Shown here: positions 6,561 through 57,746 of the stretch, piece after piece | Layout of the letters: each line of letters opens with the position of its first letter | Numbering within the stretch: the first letter of the stretch is position 1 | From: Leucoraja erinacea | Lineage: Eukaryota | Assembly (NCBI RefSeq): GCF_028641065.1 | Contig: NC_073401.1 | Location: 19,592,001 to 19,656,000, forward strand | DNA: 64,000 nt | Direction of reading: 5' to 3' | Program-made: the position numbers and the translations under genes | The notes under the pieces: generated by a model | Told to the model about the DNA's origin: nothing | Seen by the model: only the letters and a program-made list of their open reading frames with translations | The model's database searches: none

Positions 6561-7115
6561 TACATACCAGGGCACGGGGTGTAACAGTAGATGAGAGGAG
6601 ACTCTGCCAGCTGTTGACACTATTTGAGTTAATAGATTTGTGATTAAGCGAGTGTTTAGTTAAAAGCCTGTCATTTAGCAGCATAACAAATGTTAACTCG
6701 GAATAATGGAAAGATACAGCATTGAAACAGCACTTCGCCCTCTGAGTTCATGTCAACCAACAACCACCCATTTACCCTAATCCTACAATCCTGTTTTATT
6801 CTCCGCACACTCCCATCAGCTATTCTCCCCACCCCCCCCAGGTTTTAACACTCACCTGACACAGACGGCTGTGGAGTCCAAGTCAATGGATATTTTTAAG
6901 GTGAAGATTGACAGATTCTTGATTAGTAAGGGTGTCGGGTTATGGGGCGAAGGCAGGAAAATGGGGTTGAGAGGGAAAAATAGATCAGCCATGATTGAAT
7001 AGTGGAGTAGACTTGATGGGCCGAATGGCTTCATTCTGCTCCTAGAACGTATGAATTATCTTTGGGATGAAGGAAGAGACCAGAGGAGCTGGAGGAAACC
7101 TACTCAATTACAGGG

Positions 7116-7282
7116 NNNNNNNNNNNNNNNNNNNNNNNNNNNNNNNNNNNNNNNNNNNNNNNNNNNNNNNNNNNNNNNNNNNNNNNNNNNNNNNNNNNNN
7201 NNNNNNNNNNNNNNNNNNNNNNNNNNNNNNNNNNNNNNNNNNNNNNNNNNNNNNNNNNNNNNNNNNNNNNNNNNNNNNNNNN
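7116..7282. other. assembly gap (N run)
   Basis: 167 N. Confidence 1.
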
Positions 7283-22430: not shown

Positions 22431-23122
22431 GCTGTTGGGTCTGACTCCAAACATTGGGGTGTTACTCCTGTGATATCCATTTAATTCGTTTTACAGGGTC
22501 TCCTTGATATCACACCCAGTCAAATTCAGCTTCAAGGGTGAGGGCTGTCACTCTCACCTCCCCTCTTAAATTCATGCACTTGTTCCACATTTGTACAAGG
22601 CTGTGCGAGTTCCCTCACGATGAGAACGATGACCTCCTTCTCCGCAGAGGATTCACTGTGGTGATGTTGTAGTTAATGATTAACGCAAAACGCTCGGCAC
22701 TGGGACAAGGTACAGCTGGATTGCATTAAGGGAGTTCAAACCCACGTCCCACACGCTTTCAGATAATCCTGCGGCCTGATACTTGTGGGCGTTTGGATTT
22801 GGGTTCACACAGCAAGCACTGGACCAGAATCCAGACACTGGTCGGCTAGGGTCTCTGGGCCTGGGGATTGCCAGCCTGGGAGTAGATCTGGGTTTGTGTG
22901 TTCATGTTGGTCGGATCATTTTCATCATTGCCCGTGCCACCTTCTCGTTGTGCTCGAAGGCAAAGCTCCTGCCGTAAGAGGAAACATCTCAGAGAGGCGG
23001 GGGGGAAGGAGATGTGGAACTGCAGCCAGTTGTTGAGGACATCCTTGAATGCCCCGTTGAGAAGTGTGCAGATGCCCAGAGTGCTGTCCGCACCACCTCC
23101 ATGTTCCTTGTGGTGTTGGAAC

Positions 23123-23156
23123 CAAAGATACTAGAGGAGCTCCTCTAGTGTCTTTG
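23123..23156. mobile_element. 34-bp palindromic transposon remnant with 8-bp TSD (P-element-like footprint)
   Basis: GTTGGAAC | CAAAGATACTAGAGGAG CTCCTCTAGTGTCTTTG | GTTGGAAC. Confidence 0.75.
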
Positions 23157-23989
23157 GTTGGAACATACGTGGGGCTGCAGCGCCCCCTGGTTGGAGATTT
23201 TCATTCTCATTCATGTCAGCAATGCCACAGAAAATTAACCACGAGCATTACATCCCAATCAAACCACAACGATGACTAGGCTGTAGTATAACACTAGCCT
23301 AAGCATTTCACACGATTGTCAAACTATGAAAAAAGATCACCTCTGATTATTCATAGATATGATCGCCTGCTAAACAATATTTTTTTTCCTTTAGTTTATT
23401 GTCACGTGTGCCGATGTACACTGAAAAGCTTTTTTGTTGCATGCTAATCAGTCAGCAGAAAGACAAAGATGATTACAATTGATCCATTTACAGGGATAGA
23501 TACATGAACAGGGAATAACGTGTAGTGCAAGGTAACGCCAGCAAAGTCCGATCAAGGGTAGACCGAGGGTCACCAAAGACGTAGATCGTTGTTCAGCACT
23601 GCTCTCTGGTATAACAATAGAATATTGAATACACACAACATTTCAAGCTAGCATAATTCTTGAACTGTCCAGAACTGAAAACAATACTTCAAATGTTGCC
23701 GAACCAAAGCTTGATAAAGCTGCAATGTGACTGGCCAATGTTTACAATTGGTATTGGCTTATTATAGTCACGTGTACTGAGGTACAGTGAACAGTTTTGG
23801 CTGCGTGCAATCTGGTCAAATCATACTGCACTTGAGTCCAATCATGCCGTACACGTACAACAAAGTGCAAAGAAACAATATCCGAGGGCAGAATATAGTG
23901 TCACAACAGTTATAGTGTTACAGGTATAGAGTAAAAGGGCAAGGTCGGCAATGAGGTCTGGAAGATCAGGACTACATCCTAGTCGTCAT

Positions 23990-25505: not shown

Positions 25506-25660
25506 CTCATAAGGACTTTGGACATTTCTACGGCTCCAGCTACGTTGCTGCACCTGACGGTAGTCGGACTCCTGGTCTGTCCCGTACCAGGGACGGGTTG
25601 CTTGTTGCTGAGCTGGATCTCAATTTGTGCAGACAGACAAGTGATAAATGGGGCTTCAAG
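25506..25660 (+). CDS. UPB1: beta-ureidopropionase exon
   Basis: aag acceptor, gtaatt donor. 155 nt, (A)[32 protein letters not shown]...KWGFK. Confidence 0.96.
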
Positions 25661-40897: not shown

Positions 40898-41910
<1,013 letters not shown>

Positions 41911-44649: not shown

Positions 44650-45150
44650 TATAAAACATGGAAATAGGCCCTTCGGTCCAACTGCATGCTGACCAAGATG
44701 CCCCATCTTCACTAGTCCCATCAGCCCACATTTGGCTCATATTCCTTAAAACTTTACCTGTCCAAATGTCTTTTAAATGTTGTTAAACTACCTGGCTCAA
44801 CTACGTCACCCGACTGCCTGTTCCATAATACACCCTGGTGTTGAAAGGTTGCCCCTCACTAAATCTTTCCCCACTCACCTTAAACCTGTGTCCTCTGATT
44901 CTTGATTTCCCTACTCTGGATAAAAGACTACATTAATTCTATTTATTCTCCTCTTGATTTTATACACCTCTATAAGATTACCCGCTCATCCTCCTGCACT
45001 CCAAGGAATAAAGTCCTAGCATGCCCAATCTCCCAATAACCTGGGCCTTCAGATCCTGGTAACATCTTTGTAAATCTTCTCTGCACTCTTTCCTGCTTAA
45101 CGACATCCTTCCTATGTAATTGTGTCTAAAACTGAACAAAATACACCAGA
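44650..45150 (-). mobile_element. CR1 LINE 3' fragment
   Basis: Reverse-complement CR1 3' UTR and ORF2 C-terminus. Confidence 0.65.
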
Positions 45151-45265
45151 CTATTTTGGGGGGAGGGGATTCAAAGGATGGATACTAAAACCATTACAGA
45201 AACATACAGGACAGCTCGCCCATGGTGACTATAATGCCTATCTTCAGTAATCCCATTTTCCTGCA

Positions 45266-46239
45266 ATAGGGAGGTTGCACGGCAGTTGGGTCAGGACCCG
45301 TGACCCGTACTGTTGCCACACAACGCCAACTGGAGTACATGCGATGAACTGCAGGTAAGCACTTACCATTGTTTCCAGCGTAGCGGGCCTGTTAAAAAAC
45401 GCTGAAATGGTAAATTTTTGCGCTGTAAATAATTATGGAAATCGGGGTAAGCATGAGGGACATTTATCCTACTTCTGAATTCCAAAAGTGATAAATCTGG
45501 CTGTAAAATTTAAAATTCGCCCACCCATGGTTCTCAAGTGGGTTTTTACATGCAAAAAGAAAATGCTTCTGAAGCAAAATTTATCATTAAAAAAAAAATC
45601 GCAAACCATACGTGGGTTTTGAATTACATTTTACTCAGATGCAAGCCAAGGAATATCTTTGAAAGGGAGTGGGTGTTTAAGCTGTCAGGACATTTTATCA
45701 TTTGCCAAAATATACATCTCAATACATAATGATAGAAAACTTACTTTTCCACACACCACTGGAGATGTTTTAATGATAAATTTAACTTCAGAAGCGATAA
45801 AATTTACAGCCAGATTTATCACTTCTGAAACTTTTTAGATACCAAAGGAATCAAGAAAAAACACAAATAATGCCCTACTGTTGATGAAATGCAGTGAGCA
45901 AATGCGATAATTGCCAATATTTTCAATCTTGATATCTGCACGGTCAATGTTCGCCAACCACTTTAATTTTTGTTGCCCCTTCAGCTCTCGTTTCTCTACT
46001 GTAATTTCTCCTCACTTTTGGAATTCTGCAGTAGGGTAAATGTCTCTCACGCTTATCCCGACTTCCACAATTATTTACAGCGCAAAAAAATGACCATTTC
46101 GACGTTTTTTAACGGTTAAGAAAGTACGCGTTTCGTGTATTAACAGTATATGCCGGAAGCGGCCATGTACACCACATGGATTGAGCTGCTCCGTGTGTCA
46201 AGCTCTTTGACCTGATGACCTTACGTGCAACCTCCCTAT
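45266..46239. mobile_element. non-autonomous DNA transposon with 16-bp TIR ATAGGGAGGTTGCACG and internal inverted repeats
   Basis: Perfect terminal inverted match. Internal inverted pair ~45390-45495 / 46012-46115. Confidence 0.75.
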
Positions 46240-46250
46240 AGGCTTGTGTC

Positions 46251-46275
46251 CAAAGGTACTATAGGAGCATCTTTG
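46251..46275. mobile_element. 25-bp transposon remnant with 8-bp TSD (P-element-like footprint)
   Basis: CTTGTGTC | CAAAGGTACTATAGGAG CATCTTTG | CTTGTGTC. Confidence 0.7.
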
Positions 46276-46479
46276 CTTGTGTCTCTCTATACCTTTACTA
46301 TCCAGGCATATGCCCAAATGCCATTTAAACTTATTTTAACTGCACCATCAACACCTCTCGATGCCCAGCTCTCTCTCAGTGAAGAACTTGCTCCTTCAGG
46401 TCTTGCTCCTGTTTTCAACTTATTCACACTCTGGGACAGGAGCTAGTGTCATCTGATGGAAAATCAGTAGCTGGTGCAC

Positions 46480-47040
46480 ATCTGATCCACGGGGCGGAGA
46501 GAGCGCCACCAGCCGGCGGGAGGTGCAGGCACCGACTGTAGGAGGTGAGGACCAAAGATCATAGTGCACCGCCCGCCGGCAGGGGGTCTGATCCCCGGGT
46601 GGAGGGGCGGAGACAGCGCCGCCCGCCGGCAGGAGGTCTGATCCCAGGGGCTGAGAGTGCGCCGCCCACTGGCAGGAGGACCGCGCCGCCACTCCTCCGC
46701 TCTCCGCCCCCGCCTGAGCCCGGCAGGCCGCGCGCCGCTCGTGTGGCCGCAACATGGATGTGAACGTGACGGACAGCGAATGGCGGACCATTGCTTTCCG
46801 GCAGAAGGTGGTGGCGCAGATGTGAGTGCGGGGACGCGGCGCGGTGCGCATCGTGCTCCCGGCCGGGCACTGACGGCGGAGAGAGGGGGGTGCGAGGCCT
46901 ACCCGGCCTGCAAGCCGCGGGCTTTCCTGGCGACTGGTAGCCGTCAGCGTGATGGGTTGAGGCCGAGGGGGGAAATCCACGCTGACGGGCGGGCGAAAGT
47001 CCCGAGATAAAACGGCGGGAGCTACAGATCCCCGTTCCCA
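46480..47040 (+). promoter_or_regulatory. MED15 CpG-island promoter
   Basis: CpG-dense, several GC boxes (GGGGCGGAG, CCGCCCC), surrounds the start codon. Confidence 0.8.
46754..46821 (+). CDS. MED15: Mediator subunit 15 exon 1 (start of KIX domain)
   Basis: MDVNVTDSEWRTIAFRQKVVAQ(I); 68 nt; gtgagt donor. Confidence 0.93.
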
Positions 47041-47773
47041 TCACAACCCCCCCCCCCCAGTCCCATTCACACCCGTCCCCGTCCCCTTCACCCCCCGTCC
47101 CCTTCACACACCCGCCCCCGTCCCCTTCATCCCCGCCCCCTTCAACCCCCCCCCACCCCCCCCACCTCCTCCGTCCCCCTCCCTCACCCGCCGGCCCCTT
47201 CACACCCCCCAGTCCCTTCACTCACCCCCGTCCTCCTCACTCACCCCCCCCCCCCGCACCCCTCACTCAATCCCCGGGCCCCTTCACTCAACCCCCCCCC
47301 CCCCCGTCCCCTTCACTCACCCCCGTCCCCCCACTCACTCCCGTCCCCCCACTCACTCCCGTCCCCCCCACTCACTCCCCCCGTACCCCTCACTCAACCC
47401 CCCCCAGCCCCTCACCCACTACCCCGTACGCTCACTCACCCCCCCTTCCCACTCTTCCCCTTCCCTCACCCCCCCCCCCCTCTTCCCCCCCCCCCCTCCA
47501 CTTGACTTACCTCCCCCGTCCCCCTCACATCATCCCCCGCCCCCCCCCTCACACCCCCGCACCCCTCACTCAACCCCCTCGGCCACCACCGTCCCCCCCC
47601 TTCATCACCCCCCACCCGTCCCCTTCACCTCCCCGCACCATCCTCCTGTCCCTTCACGTCCCCGTCTTCTTCGCGTCCCCGTCCTGTCCCCTTCATCCCC
47701 CCCCCCCGTCCCCTTCACCCCCCGTCCCTTCACAACCCCCGTTCCTTCAGTCCCCCTCCCCCTTCACCCCACC

Positions 47774-47811
<38 letters not shown>

Positions 47812-47832
47812 TTCACCCCCCCCCCCCCCCCC
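47040..47832. repeat. C-rich degenerate minisatellite (cccccgtccccttcactca-like) in MED15 intron 1
   Basis: Read directly; long poly-C runs. Confidence 0.85.
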
Positions 47833-48889
47833 ATTCACTATCTACCAATCTTCATCCACCCTACTCCTTATACCCTCAAAGAACTTGAGCATATTTTTCC
47901 AAACAATTTTTTATTTGAAAGGAACCTGGGCATCCTTATTCATAAGTTGCTGATAGCTAATATTCGACTGGCTATTGAGAAGGTACTTAGTGTATTGGTA
48001 TTTTATGCATTAGGATTTGTATTTAGGCATAAAGAGCAAAATTGTACAATGTTCCAGTTGGATTACTCTCTGTTGCCAAACCAAGTTTGACACTTTTATA
48101 TAAGTTGGTAAGAGTCGTTGGAGACATGCTGGATTTCCTCAGTCTGCTGAGGAAGTAGAAGCATTAATGTGCGTTTTTAGATATAGCTTCATTGTGGTTG
48201 GTCCAGGACAAATTGTTGGTCTTGGAATTTGAATCTCTCCACCATCTCCACTCTGGCACCATTGATGCTGATAGGGGTGTGTACACCATCTAGTTTTCTG
48301 AAGTTGATGACCAGCTCCTTCATCTTGCGGACACTGAGGAGGAGGTTGTTGTCTTGACACTGTCGCAATTAATTGGAAGATACAGCATAGAAACAGGCCT
48401 TTCGGCCCACAGAGTCCACATCGATCATTGATCACCATTCACACTAGTTCTATATTATTCCACCTTTGACACTGATGCAGTAGCTCTACCAGCTGGGTCA
48501 CTATGCTGCCTAGCTGCACAAAGCTTTATATCAGCCTCCAGCACTCCATCTCATCATTGTTCAAGGTCTGTCCCACGATAGTTGTACCTCATCCAAACCT
48601 GCAAATGGAGTTAGAGCAGAATTTGGCCGCACAGTCATGAGTGTGTAATGAGTTTCATAAAGCGCTAAGAACACATTTTTGTGGAGCCCCTGTTGTGATT
48701 TGCATGGAGGATGGTTTGTTGCCTATTTTTACTTACTGTGGTCTAAGGGTTAGAAGTCAAGGATTCATTCGGGATGAGGGGGGGGGGGGGGGGGGGGGGG
48801 GGGCGGCGATGCTGACTCCTAGGTCCAGGAATTTGAAGATGTGTTTGGTTGAGATTGTGGTGTTAAAGGCAGAACTAGAGTCATTAAAT

Positions 48890-51726: not shown

Positions 51727-52612
51727 TAGAGCCAGGATGTTAGGCACTAATAAACTCTGAAATAGGCAGGCAAAAAGGCATAATAAAATTACAAAAAAGG
51801 CACGAAAAGGCATTTATTGACATAAAAAGGGATATATTTCTACCACCAAAATATGGTTAAAAATGATAATATATACTATATTAAATGACCAAAGTTGCCA
51901 TGGTTGCACATAATTACTCGCATTTTTTTCAAATTATCTGGTGTTAAACTATGCCGTCTGTCAGACAGAATATGCTTCAGTTGTGAAAACCTTTCTACCT
52001 CAGCTGAGGTCCCTGGTGCATACCCGAAACAAGCTACATACTCTATATTCGTGTTGATATCTTGTGCATTACAACTACCTTTGAGAACTTTAGCTATGTT
52101 TTGTATTTCTTCAAGATCTTTGTTAGCTAAAATCACACTCTCACATTTTCCGTGTATGTCTTTACCTAATTCGCCAGGAACCTGACGAATATCGTCAGTT
52201 ACTTTGTTGAAAACCTGCAAGTTATTCACTAATGTTTCGCCACGTTCCTCAAGGGAAGTGGTAGCTTGTGGGAAGTTTGCAAAATTGGAAGCGATAAATA
52301 GATTTTGGAGAAGAATGAACTAGCAGGCAGCGGCATGAATGAATGAACGACCGACGGTGGTTCCCCCGGTTTCACCCCGGTAGTGGAAATCTTCTTGTAA
52401 TTTATACTATGTTAATACGTTAATAATAACAACATTAACGTGTTAACATGGAAAACGTAATTGTAATCACGGTACAACCAGAGAAAATAGCACAACCTTT
52501 TAGCAAAAAGGCTGATTTAGCCACTGGATAGTGAAAAAGGCATTATCTTGGTGAAATCATCAAAAATAGGCATGAAAAGGCACATGGCATTTATGGTAAA
52601 ATCCTGGCTCTA
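51727..52612 (-). mobile_element. hAT-superfamily (hAT19-like) internally deleted DNA transposon
   Basis: TIR TAGAGCCAGGAT; imperfect 8-bp TSD gtcattaa/gttattag. ORF 51876-52229 FGYAPGTSAEVERFSQLKHILSDRRHSLTPDNL resembles the hAT C-terminal dimerisation region. Confidence 0.8.
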
Positions 52613-52962
52613 GTTATTAGACAGGAGCTAGAGAGGGTAGATTAGGAGCAGTTGTTATTGGTTAAATCCACAGTTCTGACATGTTGGAGTCGTTTAAGGC
52701 CAGCTGATCAAAGTGCAGGATCAGCATGTACTAGCAAGGAGGATGGATAAGGATGGCAAGGCAAGGAACCACAGATGACCAATGAGGTTGCAAACTTGGT
52801 CAGGAAGAAAAAGGAGGTTCAAGAAGATTGTATCAGATGGGATAATGAGATATATAAAGCGAGTCGGAAAGAACTCAAGCGGGCAATTAGAAGGGACAAA
52901 AGGGGCCATGAAATGTCATTGGTGAGTCAGATTTTAAAAAATCCCAAGGTTTTTGATATGTG

Positions 52963-55113
52963 CAGTGTTCACCATAATGTTTGGGACAAAGACCCATCAT
53001 TTATTTATTTGCCTCTGTTCTCCACAATTTGAGATTTGTAATATAAAAAAAATCACAAGTGGTTAAAGTGCGCATTGTAAGTTTTTATTAAATGGTATTT
53101 TTATAAATGTTAGTTTCACCATGTAGAAATTACAGCTCTGTTTATACACAGTCCCCCCCCCCGATTTCAGGGCACCATAATGTTCGGGACACATGGCTTC
53201 ACAGGTGTTTGGAATTGCTCAGGTGTGTAAATGCCTCCTTAATGCAGGTATAAGAGAGCTCTCAGTACCTCGTCTTTCCTCCAGTCTTTCCATCACCTTT
53301 GGAACCTTTTATTGCTGTTTATCAATATGAGGACCAAAGTTGTGCCAATGAAAGTCAAGGAAGCCATTATGAGACTGAGAAACAAGAATAAAACTATTAG
53401 AGACATCAGTCAAACCTTAGGCTTATCAAAATCAACTGTTTGGAACATCATTAAGAAGTTCTGAGCTTACTAATCGACAGATCAGAAACACTCTTCAGGA
53501 GTCTGGAGTGGATTTGTCAATGACCACTGTTCGCAGAGGACTTCATGAACGCTGCAAGTTGCAAACCACTGGTTAGCTACAAAAATAGGATGGTTCGGTT
53601 ACAGTTTGCCAAGAAGTACGTAAAAGAGCGACCGCAGTTCTAGAAAAAGGTCTTGTGGACAGATGAGACGCAGATTAACTTATATCAGAGTGATGGCAAG
53701 AGCAAAGTATGGAAGAGAGAAGGAACTGCCTAAGATCCAAAGCATACCACCTCATCAGTGAAACAAAGTGGTGGGGGTGTTATGGCCTGGGCACGTATGG
53801 CTGCTGAAGATACTGGCTCACTTATCTTCATTGATGATACAACTGCTGGTGGTAGTAGCATAATGAATTCTGAAGTGTATAGACACATCCTATCTGCTCA
53901 AGTTCAAACAAATGCCTCAAAACTCATTTGCTGGCAGTTCATTCTACAGCAAGACAATTATCCCAAACGTAACTGCTAAAGCAACAAAGGGGTTTTTCAA
54001 AGCTAAAAAATGGTCAATTCTTGAGTGGCCAAGTCAATCACCCGATCTGAACCCAATTGAACATGCCTTTTATATGCTGAAGAGAAACCTGAAGGGGATT
54101 AGCCCCCAAAACAAGCATAAACTAAAGATGGCTGCAATACAGGCAATAGACAATACACAATAGGTGCATTTGTTTGGCGGCGCGACTCACCCGTTGCAGC
54201 GGCCCCCAGTCTTGTCTTTTTTTAAATTTTTTGTCTAGTTAAATGTAGTGTTGGTGTTTTTTAATACTGGTTTTAAATGTGTATATGTGGGGGGGCGGGG
54301 GAAACTGTTTAAAATCTCTTCCCTGTACGGGAGACCCGACCTTCTGTTGTCGTTGGGGCCTAGCACCGTGGAGCGGCCTCCAACCTGAATGACCCGGGGG
54401 CCCGGGAGACTGCGGAGCTGCGGACTACTCACCATTGTGGGGCTGGCTGGCCTCGGAGCGTGGGGAGTGGTGGTGACTCGCTGGGTTCACTGTGATGGAT
54501 GTTTGTGTGAATTAAATTGTGTGTATGTCTAGGAAATTGTCTTTGTATGGCTGTGGAAATGGAATTTCGTTTGAGCCTCACTGAGAGTCTTTAAGAGTCC
54601 TGTCTAGCTCTCTCTTGAAAGTATCCAGAGAACCGGCCTCCACCGCCTTCTGAGGCAGAGAATTCCACAGACTCACAACTCTGGGTGAAAAAGTGTTTCC
54701 TCATCTCTGTTCTAAATGGCTTACCCCTTATTCTTAAACTGTGGCCCCTAGTTCTGGATTCCCCCAACATCGGGAACATTGGCCTGACAGAGTATCAACA
54801 GAGAAGACACCCAGCAACTGGTGATGTCCATGAATCGCAGACTTCAAGCAGTCATTGCATGCAAAAATACTAATCATTGCTTTCATTTACATGACACTTT
54901 TGTGTTCCAAACATTATGGTGCCCTGATATGGGGGGGGGTCTATGTATAAACACTGCTGGAATTTCTACATGGTGAAACCAAAATGTATAAAAATAGCCT
55001 TTATTAAAATCTGTTAATGTGCACTTAATTTCTATTACAAATCTCAAATTGTGGAGTACAGAGACAAATAAATAAATGATGGGTCCTTGTCCCAAACATT
55101 ATGGAGGGCACTG
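52963..55113 (+). mobile_element. Tc1-family IR/DR transposon, decayed DD34E transposase, with nested retro-insertions
   Basis: ~230-bp TIRs starting CAGTG, each with a repeated ccataatgttyggga DR. HTH (IRDISQTLGLSKSTVWNII), VLWTDE, QQDN-34aa-E (WPSQSPDLNPIE); stops and frameshifts. Confidence 0.92.
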
Positions 55114-57746
55114 TATGTTTAAAAACTCGAGGGTGACTAGGGAGACTGCTCAAGGATAAAGGAGGATATGCCTGCTTGGAGTCAGTGGGTATAGGTGAGG
55201 TGCTAAATGAATACTTTGCATGTGTATTTACTGAGGTGAAGAACTTTGAGTAGAGTGAGATGAGTGTGGAGAATACAAATGTGCTAGTGCAGTTTGAGAT
55301 CGAGAAGGCGGTGATGTTGAGCTGCTGAAGAGAATTAACGTAGAAAAATACCCGGAATTGTAGGGATCCGGAAGGGAAGTAGAGAGAATCCAGGGAACAA
55401 TAGGCCGGTGAGCCTCGTATCAGTGGTAGGGAAACAATTGAAGAGAATTCTTCAATATAGGATCTACTCCCATTTGGAAGAGAATGGGCTAATTGGGGAT
55501 AGCCAGCATGACTTTGTACATGGCAGGTAATGTCTTACTGACTTGATTGAGTGTTTTGTTAATGTTACGAAGGAGATTGATGAAGGTAGGTGCGGTGGAT
55601 GGTGTACACATTGTACACATAAAAGAGCATCTCTGGAGAACATGAATCGTTGATGTTTCTGGGTGGGGCCTTTCTTCAGACTGATTGTTGAATTATTTCA
55701 GCACTTTGTCTCCTTTTGCGTATTAAACAGCAAAGCCGTTTTTTGGTTTCTACCAAGTTTTTAAGGTGATTCCGACGTGTAAAATCTGACTTACATAAAG
55801 GTTTACAAAATGTAACCCTTGCGTATCTCGGGGAGTGTCTGCATGTAAAATTATGCGTGGCACAATTAGGGTAGACAGTCAAACCCTTTTTCCGAGTGTA
55901 GAAATGTCCAACACTGGAGGGAATAACTATAAGGTGAGAGGGGGAAAGTTTAATGAAGATGTGTGGTGTTTTTGTCCAGAGAGTGGTGGGGGCCTGGAAA
56001 TCATTGCCAAGGGTGGAGGTGGAAGCAGATACTTTAGTGACGTTTAAGAGGCAAACATTGTGGGCTGAAAGGCCGATTCCTCTGATGTATTGTTCGATAT
56101 TTTATGTAATACTAATATGCAAGGGCAGTTTGAGATCAAGCAGGATGTGGTGTTGGGGCAAGTCAAGAGCATTATGGTGGATTCATCGCCAAGGCCTGAT
56201 GAGATCTATCCCACGTTAAGAAGAGTAAGCAAGGACATTACAGGAGCCTTAACAAAGGACTTTTCAACTTCTCTAGCCACAGGCGAGGTCTCACAGGACT
56301 GGAGGGTAGAAATGTTATCCCTTTGTTATGAAGGGAAGCAGAGATAATCAAGGCAATTATAGGCTGGCGAGCCTCACATCAGTGACAGGAAAGCTATTGG
56401 AGTGGATTCTTCATGAGAATTTACACTCATTTAAGGGAATGGGCCGATTAGGGATAGTCAACAATGGCTTTGTACACAGCAGGTCATATCTTACAAAATT
56501 GATCCAAGTTTTTGAGGATGTTACGAAGTTGATCAATGAGGGTTGGGTGATGGATGTTGTCTACATGAATTTTAATAAGGCATTTGATAAAGTACCCCAT
56601 GGTAGGCTGATCTAGAAGATGAAGATTCACGGATTTCATGATGATTTGGTTGTATGGATTCAGAATTGGCTTACTTGTAGGAGACAGAGGGTTGTGGTGG
56701 AATTATTCTAGCTGAAGGTCTGTGACCAGTTGAGTTCCTCAGGAATTCGTGCTGGGGCCATTGTTGTTTGTGATGTATATAAATCACTATCGTAAATAGA
56801 AATGGGTTGGTTAGTAAGTTTGCAGACATCAGCAAGATTGCTGGTTTTGTGTTGTGATTTGTGTGGGAATGCTGTCAAAAGATACAGCGGGATATAGACC
56901 AGTTACAGAAATGGGCAGAGAGATGGCAGATGTAGTTTAATCCGAGCAAGCGTTAGGTGTTGCATTTCAGGTGGTCGAATTTAAGGGTGTACGGTTGATG
57001 GCAGGATGCTTAACAGCATTAATGTACAGAGGGAGCTTGGGGTCCAGGTCCATAGCTCCCTGAAAGTGGTATAATTAGGTAGTGGTAAAGAAGGCATATG
57101 GGCGGCTAACCATCATTGGTTGGGGCTGAGTATAAGAGTCAGGAAGTCATGATGCAGTTCTATAAGACTCCGGTTAGGCTGCAGTTGGAGTATTGTGTAT
57201 AGTTCTGGTTGACACAATGCAGGAAAGATGATGGGACTGGAGAGGGCACAGAAGATGTTTACCATAGTGCTGCCTGGATTAGGTTGTAGGATATACAAAG
57301 AGAGGTTGGACAAATTTGGACTGTTTTCTCTGGAACGCCATATGTTATATGTTGGCTTTGGTGTTCACATCCAAGTTTCAGCATCATTATGGGTGGGGAT
57401 GCTCTGAGAGATGCCTCATTCTGTTAACCATTAATTGTTCACCTATTGTTCACGATAGGATGTAGAAGGCAGGAGTTCAACAATGAGATTGTTTAGCTAC
57501 ATCTATTGCTTTGTGATGGAGGCGGGCTACCATTCTGCTTCTGGTTGGCTAACAGTACATTGTGCAAGCCCAGTTTGGACCAAATGCCCCATTTCCCACG
57601 ACCACATCCCAGATTAAATCCTGCATGAAGATCTTAATTGGGATATTATAAAGCATTGTGATTTTCCACAGTAGTTGTGCCTCCCCGACTTGCCTGTTTC
57701 CGTTTAGCATGCCGGCGTTGCTGATTGCTCTTTTTCCTGTTTGCAG

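Follow-up and report, generated by a model that had tools for sequence, protein, structure and literature searches.

The closest described counterpart of the locus reported here is the P element of Drosophila melanogaster. According to the accessible text of PMC7776569, the P transposase cuts at the 3' end of the element on one strand and 17 bp inside it on the other, generates 8-bp target duplications, and moves elements that tend to hop locally. The donor site is left with 17-nt 3' overhangs, and the excision junctions sequenced in the P{wa} assay retain element tips of up to 17 nt with CA...TG ends between the 8-bp duplications; they include blunt 17+17 joins (3 isolates), joins of 17+filler+17, asymmetric joins through 1-3 nt of microhomology, and joins in which one arm is lost (PMC5466332, available portion). 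The 17-nt staggered cut is an unusual mark of the Drosophila enzyme in the excerpts of PMC7776569 and PMC10983969, and a natural cut of this kind by vertebrate P-like elements is not shown in the literature consulted. In zebrafish, the P-like family Pdre2/THAP9 has 8-bp duplications, CA...TG ends and a 13-bp terminal repeat, and its excision products are deletions, natural footprints not being described in the part of PMC10983969 at hand. P-related MITEs are non-coding, multi-copy and uniform elements with an interior: those of Anopheles have 8-bp duplications (PMC1562414) and BuT5, of ~1 kb, has duplications of 8-9 bp (PMC3698922), as far as the accessible sections go. In contrast, hAT and MULE elements, which also make long target duplications, cut at the element end through a hairpin formed on flanking DNA, and because of this they would leave flank palindromes or precise loss rather than transposon tips (PMC5499845, in the text available).

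The window analysed here, a stretch of 64,000 nt from the skate Leucoraja erinacea, contains a 41-nt site that resembles a P excision junction. The features to which the text refers are as follows.

45268..46237, no strand: high-copy MITE of 970 bp with a 14-bp terminal inverted repeat, AGGGAGGTTGCACG; AT flanks at 45266-67 and 46238-39
46240..46420, no strand: right part of an old interspersed repeat that hosts the scar; its left part lies at ~45180-45267, and both flanks align in order to the same window paralogs
46243..46250, no strand: 8-bp target site duplication, copy 1, CTTGTGTC; host-repeat paralogs fit one copy only
46251..46267, plus strand: full 17-nt transposon-end arm, CAAAGGTACTATAGGAG; 16/17 against the 17-mer of contig L172
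46266..46267, no strand: AG possibly common to both arms (2-nt microhomology), with one substitution needed at 46268
46268..46275, minus strand: remnant of the opposite end, 7-8 nt (10 nt with AG), reverse complement CAAAGATG
46276..46283, no strand: 8-bp target site duplication, copy 2, identical to copy 1
46754..46821, plus strand: probable first coding exon of MED15, MDVNVTDSEWRTIAFRQKVVAQ, then GT; Med15_N and PDB matches
23115..23164, no strand: sister scar, GTTGGAAC + 17-nt arm (23123-23139) + inverted 17-nt arm (23140-23156, one mismatch) + GTTGGAAC
Contig L172, 293-348: outside site with a second end type, reverse complement CAAAGGCAGTGCAGGAG

The letters at 46243-46283 are CTTGTGTC CAAAGGTACTATAGGAG CATCTTTG CTTGTGTC, that is, a 25-nt insert (17+8 nt) with CA...TG ends between two identical 8-mers, exactly as a sequence-only reading of the window had described it. 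That reading had also matched the left 17 nt to the arm at 23123-23139 at 15 of 17 positions, a count that we reproduce; the same 17 nt agree with the pattern CAAAGATACTAKAGGAG at 16 of 17. Its right arm, which it took to be shortened and joined through AG, is indeed reduced to 7-10 nt, but the microhomology is one of two equally simple descriptions of the junction. Read through AG, the right arm has 10 nt (reverse complement CAAAGATGCT) and needs one substitution, because it mismatches the arm at position 8; 17 nt, one filler base and 7 nt account for the same letters just as simply.

Such a structure is rare by chance. We scanned the window generically, at settings picked after the finding was known, for inserts of 10-60 nt that lie between exact 8-bp direct repeats and have a perfect terminal inverted repeat of at least 5 bp. 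Two sites qualify, 23115 and 46243, and each begins CAAAG. Block-wise dinucleotide shuffling, repeated 200 times, yielded 0.065 such sites on average; one shuffle reached two sites, and a CAAAG start never appeared. The arm pattern with up to two mismatches occurs three times in the window against 0.02 expected and none of 100 shuffles reached three, two of the three matches being the 23115 arms from which the pattern was built. As both the shuffle scan and the arm-pattern counts exceed expectation, chance is excluded for the scar, and inserts of this form are commoner in the window than in shuffled sequence, a comparison on which the sequence-only reading had staked itself. The same counts weigh against a local accident, whether a chance repeat or a template switch on the adjacent MITE end (CTCCCTATAG, near-complementary to CTATAGGAG) together with an 8-bp slippage duplication. 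The MITE end does lie 5 nt away and pairs with the last 9 nt of the arm in the minimum-energy fold, but this fold does not stand out from shuffles, 34 of 200 being as good. L172 holds the T variant of the arm unchanged between perfect duplications, and the arm matches 23123 at 15 of 17 positions; this family match largely refutes a local accident, which we regard as extremely unlikely. The 41-nt site has no notable hairpin of its own (52 of 200 shuffles fold as well), and 44800-47000 has no Rfam match. A profile built from the three arms in the window and run at relaxed settings, to pick up shortened or degraded scars as well, found nothing beyond 23115 and 46243. When longer elements were sought in the window, defined by matching 12-nt ends no more than 8 kb apart and duplications of 7-9 bp, six candidates emerged, with scar-family ends only at 23115. 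The site at 46243 is real and old, and probably an inert relic; it carries no sign of function and we propose none.

The host of the scar allows the insertion to be measured. It is an old interspersed repeat that we take to resemble a LINE 3' tail. Spacing between flank anchors was measured ungapped in 14 paralog rows, the MITE and one AT being left out at the scar site. The spacing is 44 nt at the scar (46240-46283) and 11 nt in the two best-scoring paralogs, 17472(-) and 27500(+); two of the weaker rows also have 11 nt and one has 9, the remaining rows are alternative pairings or lie near the score floor, and none of the 14 has 44. The best paralog has one CCAGTGTC where the scar site has CTTGTGTC twice. 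The step from 11 to 44 nt means that 33 nt were gained, the 25-nt insert plus one 8-mer, and the site is an insertion with an 8-bp target duplication. Multiple alignments of the scar site with its paralogs were discarded, the insert being forced onto unrelated letters.

Four of 24 sequencing runs (X1, X16, X17 and X19) were compared at the scar, the sampled-word share being at most 0.51 in all 24. X1, possibly from the same species and not an independent sample, covers 46212-46900 without a gap and differs from the window only by C>T at 46271, within the short arm; at that position X16 has the letter of the window. X17, which bears another organism label, spans 46182-46900 (719 nt) with 19 differing letters and 5 gap letters; it carries the scar, is 2.6% diverged there and lacks a 33-nt gap. 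Since the scar is common to the window and to a run of another organism label at this distance, it is old; judged by these sequences, it predates the split from a relative 2.6% diverged at the locus. Neither an empty (single-copy) nor a filled (full-element) allele appears among the matches listed in the three runs that cover 46271. X19, the most diverged of the four, has no cover at the scar, and its contig stops aligning at 46331 with 115 further letters, which could be an indel or another insertion and weigh neither for nor against the scar.

The sister site at 23115 holds an insert of exactly 34 nt, 17+17, and has a hairpin z-score of -7.9. Its duplication differs from that at 46243 and the arms agree at 15 of 17 positions, which supports the view, already taken in the sequence-only reading, that the two sites record independent insertions with the same end family. 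Lying 23 kb apart, they could reflect local hopping. The genomic abundance of scars cannot be inferred from them, as two sites in 64 kb give no density in a window that was flagged for them.

Further copies of the end were sought outside the window with a 17-mer, in metagenome contigs, prokaryote genomes and viral contigs, with 235 pattern loci overall; this query builds an arm of at least 17 nt into the search and so fixes its lower bound. The metagenome contigs contain 118 loci, most of them apparently chance matches in open reading frames; 116 were examined (72 distinct contexts), the other two lying too near a contig end, and flanks are 300 nt or shorter for 38 of the 118, L172 and L177 included. 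An exact upstream 8-mer is repeated 17-45 nt downstream at two of the 116, against 0.03 expected under uniform composition. L177 reads CCAGCGGC + 17-mer + CCAGCGGC, with one whole arm and none of the other (17+0), and L172 reads ATTGGGGA + 17-mer + GCAGGC + CTCCTGCACTGCCTTTG + ATTGGGGA, with a 40-nt insert. In controls, the same duplication test was positive in none of 44 contexts in prokaryote genomes (50 loci) and, with a slightly looser pattern, in one of 36 contexts from viral contigs (L057, where the repeat lies at +19); since L057 also has an exact repeat, L177 taken alone could be chance. L057 and six other loci (L011, L016, L023, L036, L039 and L049) belong to a phage family in which the arm pattern lies within a 27-nt spaced 8-bp repeat, and are false positives of the test. 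In the viral contigs, an inverted partner arm was found at 0 of 67 loci of the degenerate 17-mer, the two-arm pattern at two loci with a duplication at neither, and the 21-nt extended end at none. In the outside scans a second arm and a repeat occur together only in L172. Its second end shows that the family keeps CAAAG and AGGAG while the middle 7 nt vary. With L172 and L177 counted, four sites have an exact 8-bp duplication, and all those with two ends begin CAAAG and end CTTTG.

Some further loci carry the arm in eukaryote-looking DNA (L118/L149, L141 and L115/L163) and were not counted, being without a duplication or partner end. In L118 (4720-4740, minus strand) and L149, the 17-mer is followed by GCAG as in L172, so that L172 and L118 share 21 nt, 4 of them beyond the 17-mer, and GCAGGAGGCA recurs ~45 nt further in; this may be a longer, genuine element end. 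No second end or duplication lies within 4.7 kb of the L118 arm. The end of the 23140 arm (CTCTAGTGTCTTTG) recurs in L118 as 14 identical nt, 3037 nt downstream of the L118 arm; no duplication matches there, and the recurrence may be chance. L177 has microsatellites and L118 has split frames of a von Willebrand A domain, and in eight such metagenome loci nothing beyond the arm matches the abundant repeats of the window. These short pieces suggest that loci of the L172, L177 and L118 type come from an animal other than a skate.

The four sites differ in their junctions, which are 17+17 at 23115, 17+8 at 46243, 17+0 in L177, and 17+6+17 or 21+19 in L172, both of which may be read there. This bears on the possibility of a tiny mobile MITE family of 17-40 nt inserting as such. 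A perfect 8-bp duplication and inverted ends accompany every copy, as they would in such a family, and P-related MITEs with 8-bp duplications are described in Anopheles (PMC1562414, in the part available). But insert lengths of 17, 25, 34 and 40 nt at four sites mean that this is not a MITE of fixed structure, the alternative that the sequence-only reading had named against itself. L177 has a single end and 46243 just 7-10 nt of the second. In addition, depth at 46271 in X1 and X17 is one contig, so no high-copy identical unit mapped there, with the proviso that short matches may escape detection. A mobile uniform MITE, which has homogeneous length and both terminal repeats, was accordingly rejected, and the wider notion of a tiny mobile family is very unlikely. 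Excision of the hAT type was likewise rejected: it makes flank hairpins and leaves no element sequence, and the insert here is an end sequence common to four unrelated sites, not a flank palindrome.

We read the insert at 46243 as probably the excision footprint of a P-type transposon. A cut-and-paste DNA transposon with ends CAAAG-N7-AGGAG would have entered the old repeat upstream of MED15, duplicating an 8-bp target, and would later have excised in the germ line. Its transposase would cut as the Drosophila P enzyme does, one strand being cut exactly at the element end and the other ~17 nt further in, which would leave each chromosome end with a 17-nt single-stranded tail of transposon sequence. 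End joining would then have kept the left tail whole and trimmed the right one to 7-10 nt, the break being sealed by the 2-nt microhomology or by one filler base. The cut position is read from the scars themselves, the searches having turned up neither a full-length element nor a transposase nor a filled allele. With n=4 and a lower bound set by the 17-mer query, 17+17 and 17+0 fit a staggered cut of ~17 nt exactly, 17+8 is compatible with it, and L172 is ambiguous. The 21+19 reading of L172 would require repair synthesis over a few bases, or else a cut further inside the element. The proposal that end joining of 17-nt overhangs made these scars agrees with P excision in its junction shapes, and falls short for L172 read as 21+19, which simple joining does not give.

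The main competitor is extreme internal deletion by aborted gap repair, in which a P-like or hAT-like element with 8-bp duplications and CA...TG ends would be part-copied from the sister chromatid and joined, either after excision or without it; no arm length would then be fixed, and 17 would be a mere short terminal repeat. Elements of the hAT group duplicate 8 bp of target, and a hAT-like remnant with a duplication agreeing at 6 of 8 positions lies in the same window, so that an 8-bp duplication is not unique to P. Moreover, L172 is readable as 21+19 nt through the 4 extra bases common to L118, and sister-templated repair after excision has been described (PMC4423477, accessible portion). 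But the remnant in the window has other ends, TAGAGCCAGGAT, and the duplicate in L177 follows directly after base 17, while the insert at 23115 is exactly 2 x 17, lengths that aborted copying does nothing to explain. Aborted gap repair is, on balance, rather unlikely.

Compared with induced P junctions in flies (PMC5466332, in its available text), the skate scar likewise has an 8-bp duplication on both sides, CA...TG ends and tips of no more than 17 nt, and the four scars show the same range of blunt 17+17, filler, microhomology and one-sided joins. They differ in terminal sequence, CAAAG-N7-AGGAG against CATGATGAAATAACATA in Drosophila P, and in being natural, old, germ-line scars, those of the window in a cartilaginous fish; one outside copy (L172) may retain more than 17 nt, unlike Drosophila P tips. 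The vertebrate Pdre2 family, from what the accessible part of PMC10983969 gives, shares the 8-bp duplications and CA...TG ends, but its terminal repeat is of other sequence and the scar arm does not resemble it. P-related MITEs share the non-coding character and the duplications of about 8 bp and differ in being uniform, whereas the scars are of 17-40 nt with a junction that changes from site to site (PMC1562414, PMC3698922, both in the sections available). We infer membership in the P superfamily, whose transposases are homologous to Drosophila P and THAP9 (a THAP domain, and a DDE RNase H fold with a GTP-binding insertion), from the scars, because no parent element or transposase with scar-family ends on both sides was found in the 64-kb window or among the 235 pattern loci. 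Of the features of the superfamily, a target duplication of 7-8 bp is present (8 bp) and so are CA...TG termini, known from P (PMC5466332) and Pdre2 (PMC10983969) ends in the excerpts of these papers, neither being specific to P; the scars contain no element interior and hence no subterminal repeats or THAP binding sites to read.

Read in this way, the event is of a known kind, a P excision junction, and the family end did not turn up in our literature searches. Among the matches listed for the 11-letter arm start, none was on transposons by title. Titles and abstract starts revealed nothing on natural P-type scars in vertebrates or on P elements in skates or cartilaginous fish; repeat databases (Repbase, Dfam), subscription papers and supplements may already hold the family. 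Sharks and skates are absent from the available main text of two THAP9 surveys, and the accessible parts of PMC10824691, 10.64898/2026.09.03.748810 and PMC12361510 describe neither the scar arm nor natural P scars nor cartilaginous-fish P elements. Such scars are presumably too short for library-based repeat annotation to be expected to catch. From them, earlier P-like activity in skates could be recognised even after decay of the elements themselves, and sequence alone would answer whether vertebrate P-like elements cut like Drosophila P; 46243 matters as one of four consistent examples, with which a genome-wide test becomes inexpensive. A bolder reading, which we hold only tentatively and would not wager on, is that a P-superfamily family with the end CAAAGATACTA(T/G)AGGAG was active in skates and in a distant non-skate animal, with horizontal transfer the probable route, and left thousands of unannotated scars of 17-40 nt. 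If so, the scars would show from nature, and in a form that can be dated, that the staggered cut of 17 nt established by Drosophila biochemistry operated in the germ line of a vertebrate; they would also sample, in vivo and in large number, the joining of long single-stranded ends in cartilaginous fish.

Around the scar, the 970-bp MITE stops 5 nt before it, has termini unrelated to the scar arms and shows very deep multi-contig cover in all four runs. Its interior contains long inverted repeats that are imperfect, and it seems to be flanked by a 2-bp AT duplication, which we assume would fit the ISL2EU/Harbinger group. On the other side, the scar ends 471 nt upstream of the ATG at 46754, in agreement with its earlier placement upstream of MED15, the 22-aa exon there being probably that of MED15 by weak matches: to Med15_N at E 0.001, under the curated cut-off, and to MED15 residues 1-22 in PDB at E 0.11, weak as expected for only 22 residues. 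The hAT-like remnant (51727-52612, 886 bp) has a 12-bp terminal repeat and, on the minus strand, a frame of 147 aa; in the Atlas clusters nearest to this frame a minority of members carry a hAT dimerisation domain, and the frame has no Pfam match at E 0.01. A ~2.2-kb element at 52951-55125, with inverted ends of ~200 bp, is presumably Tc1-like. The window contains 167 N in total, with a long run near 7.1-7.3 kb (~7115-7280), and C-rich and G/A-rich low-complexity tracts at 47030-47850 and 41300-41700, just inside the first introns of neighbouring genes. The host is placed among the skates by a 51-aa exon of UPB1 (beta-ureidopropionase) at ~25508-25660, whose identity is 100% to Leucoraja erinacea, against 98% for Rhinoraja longicauda and 96% for Amblyraja radiata.
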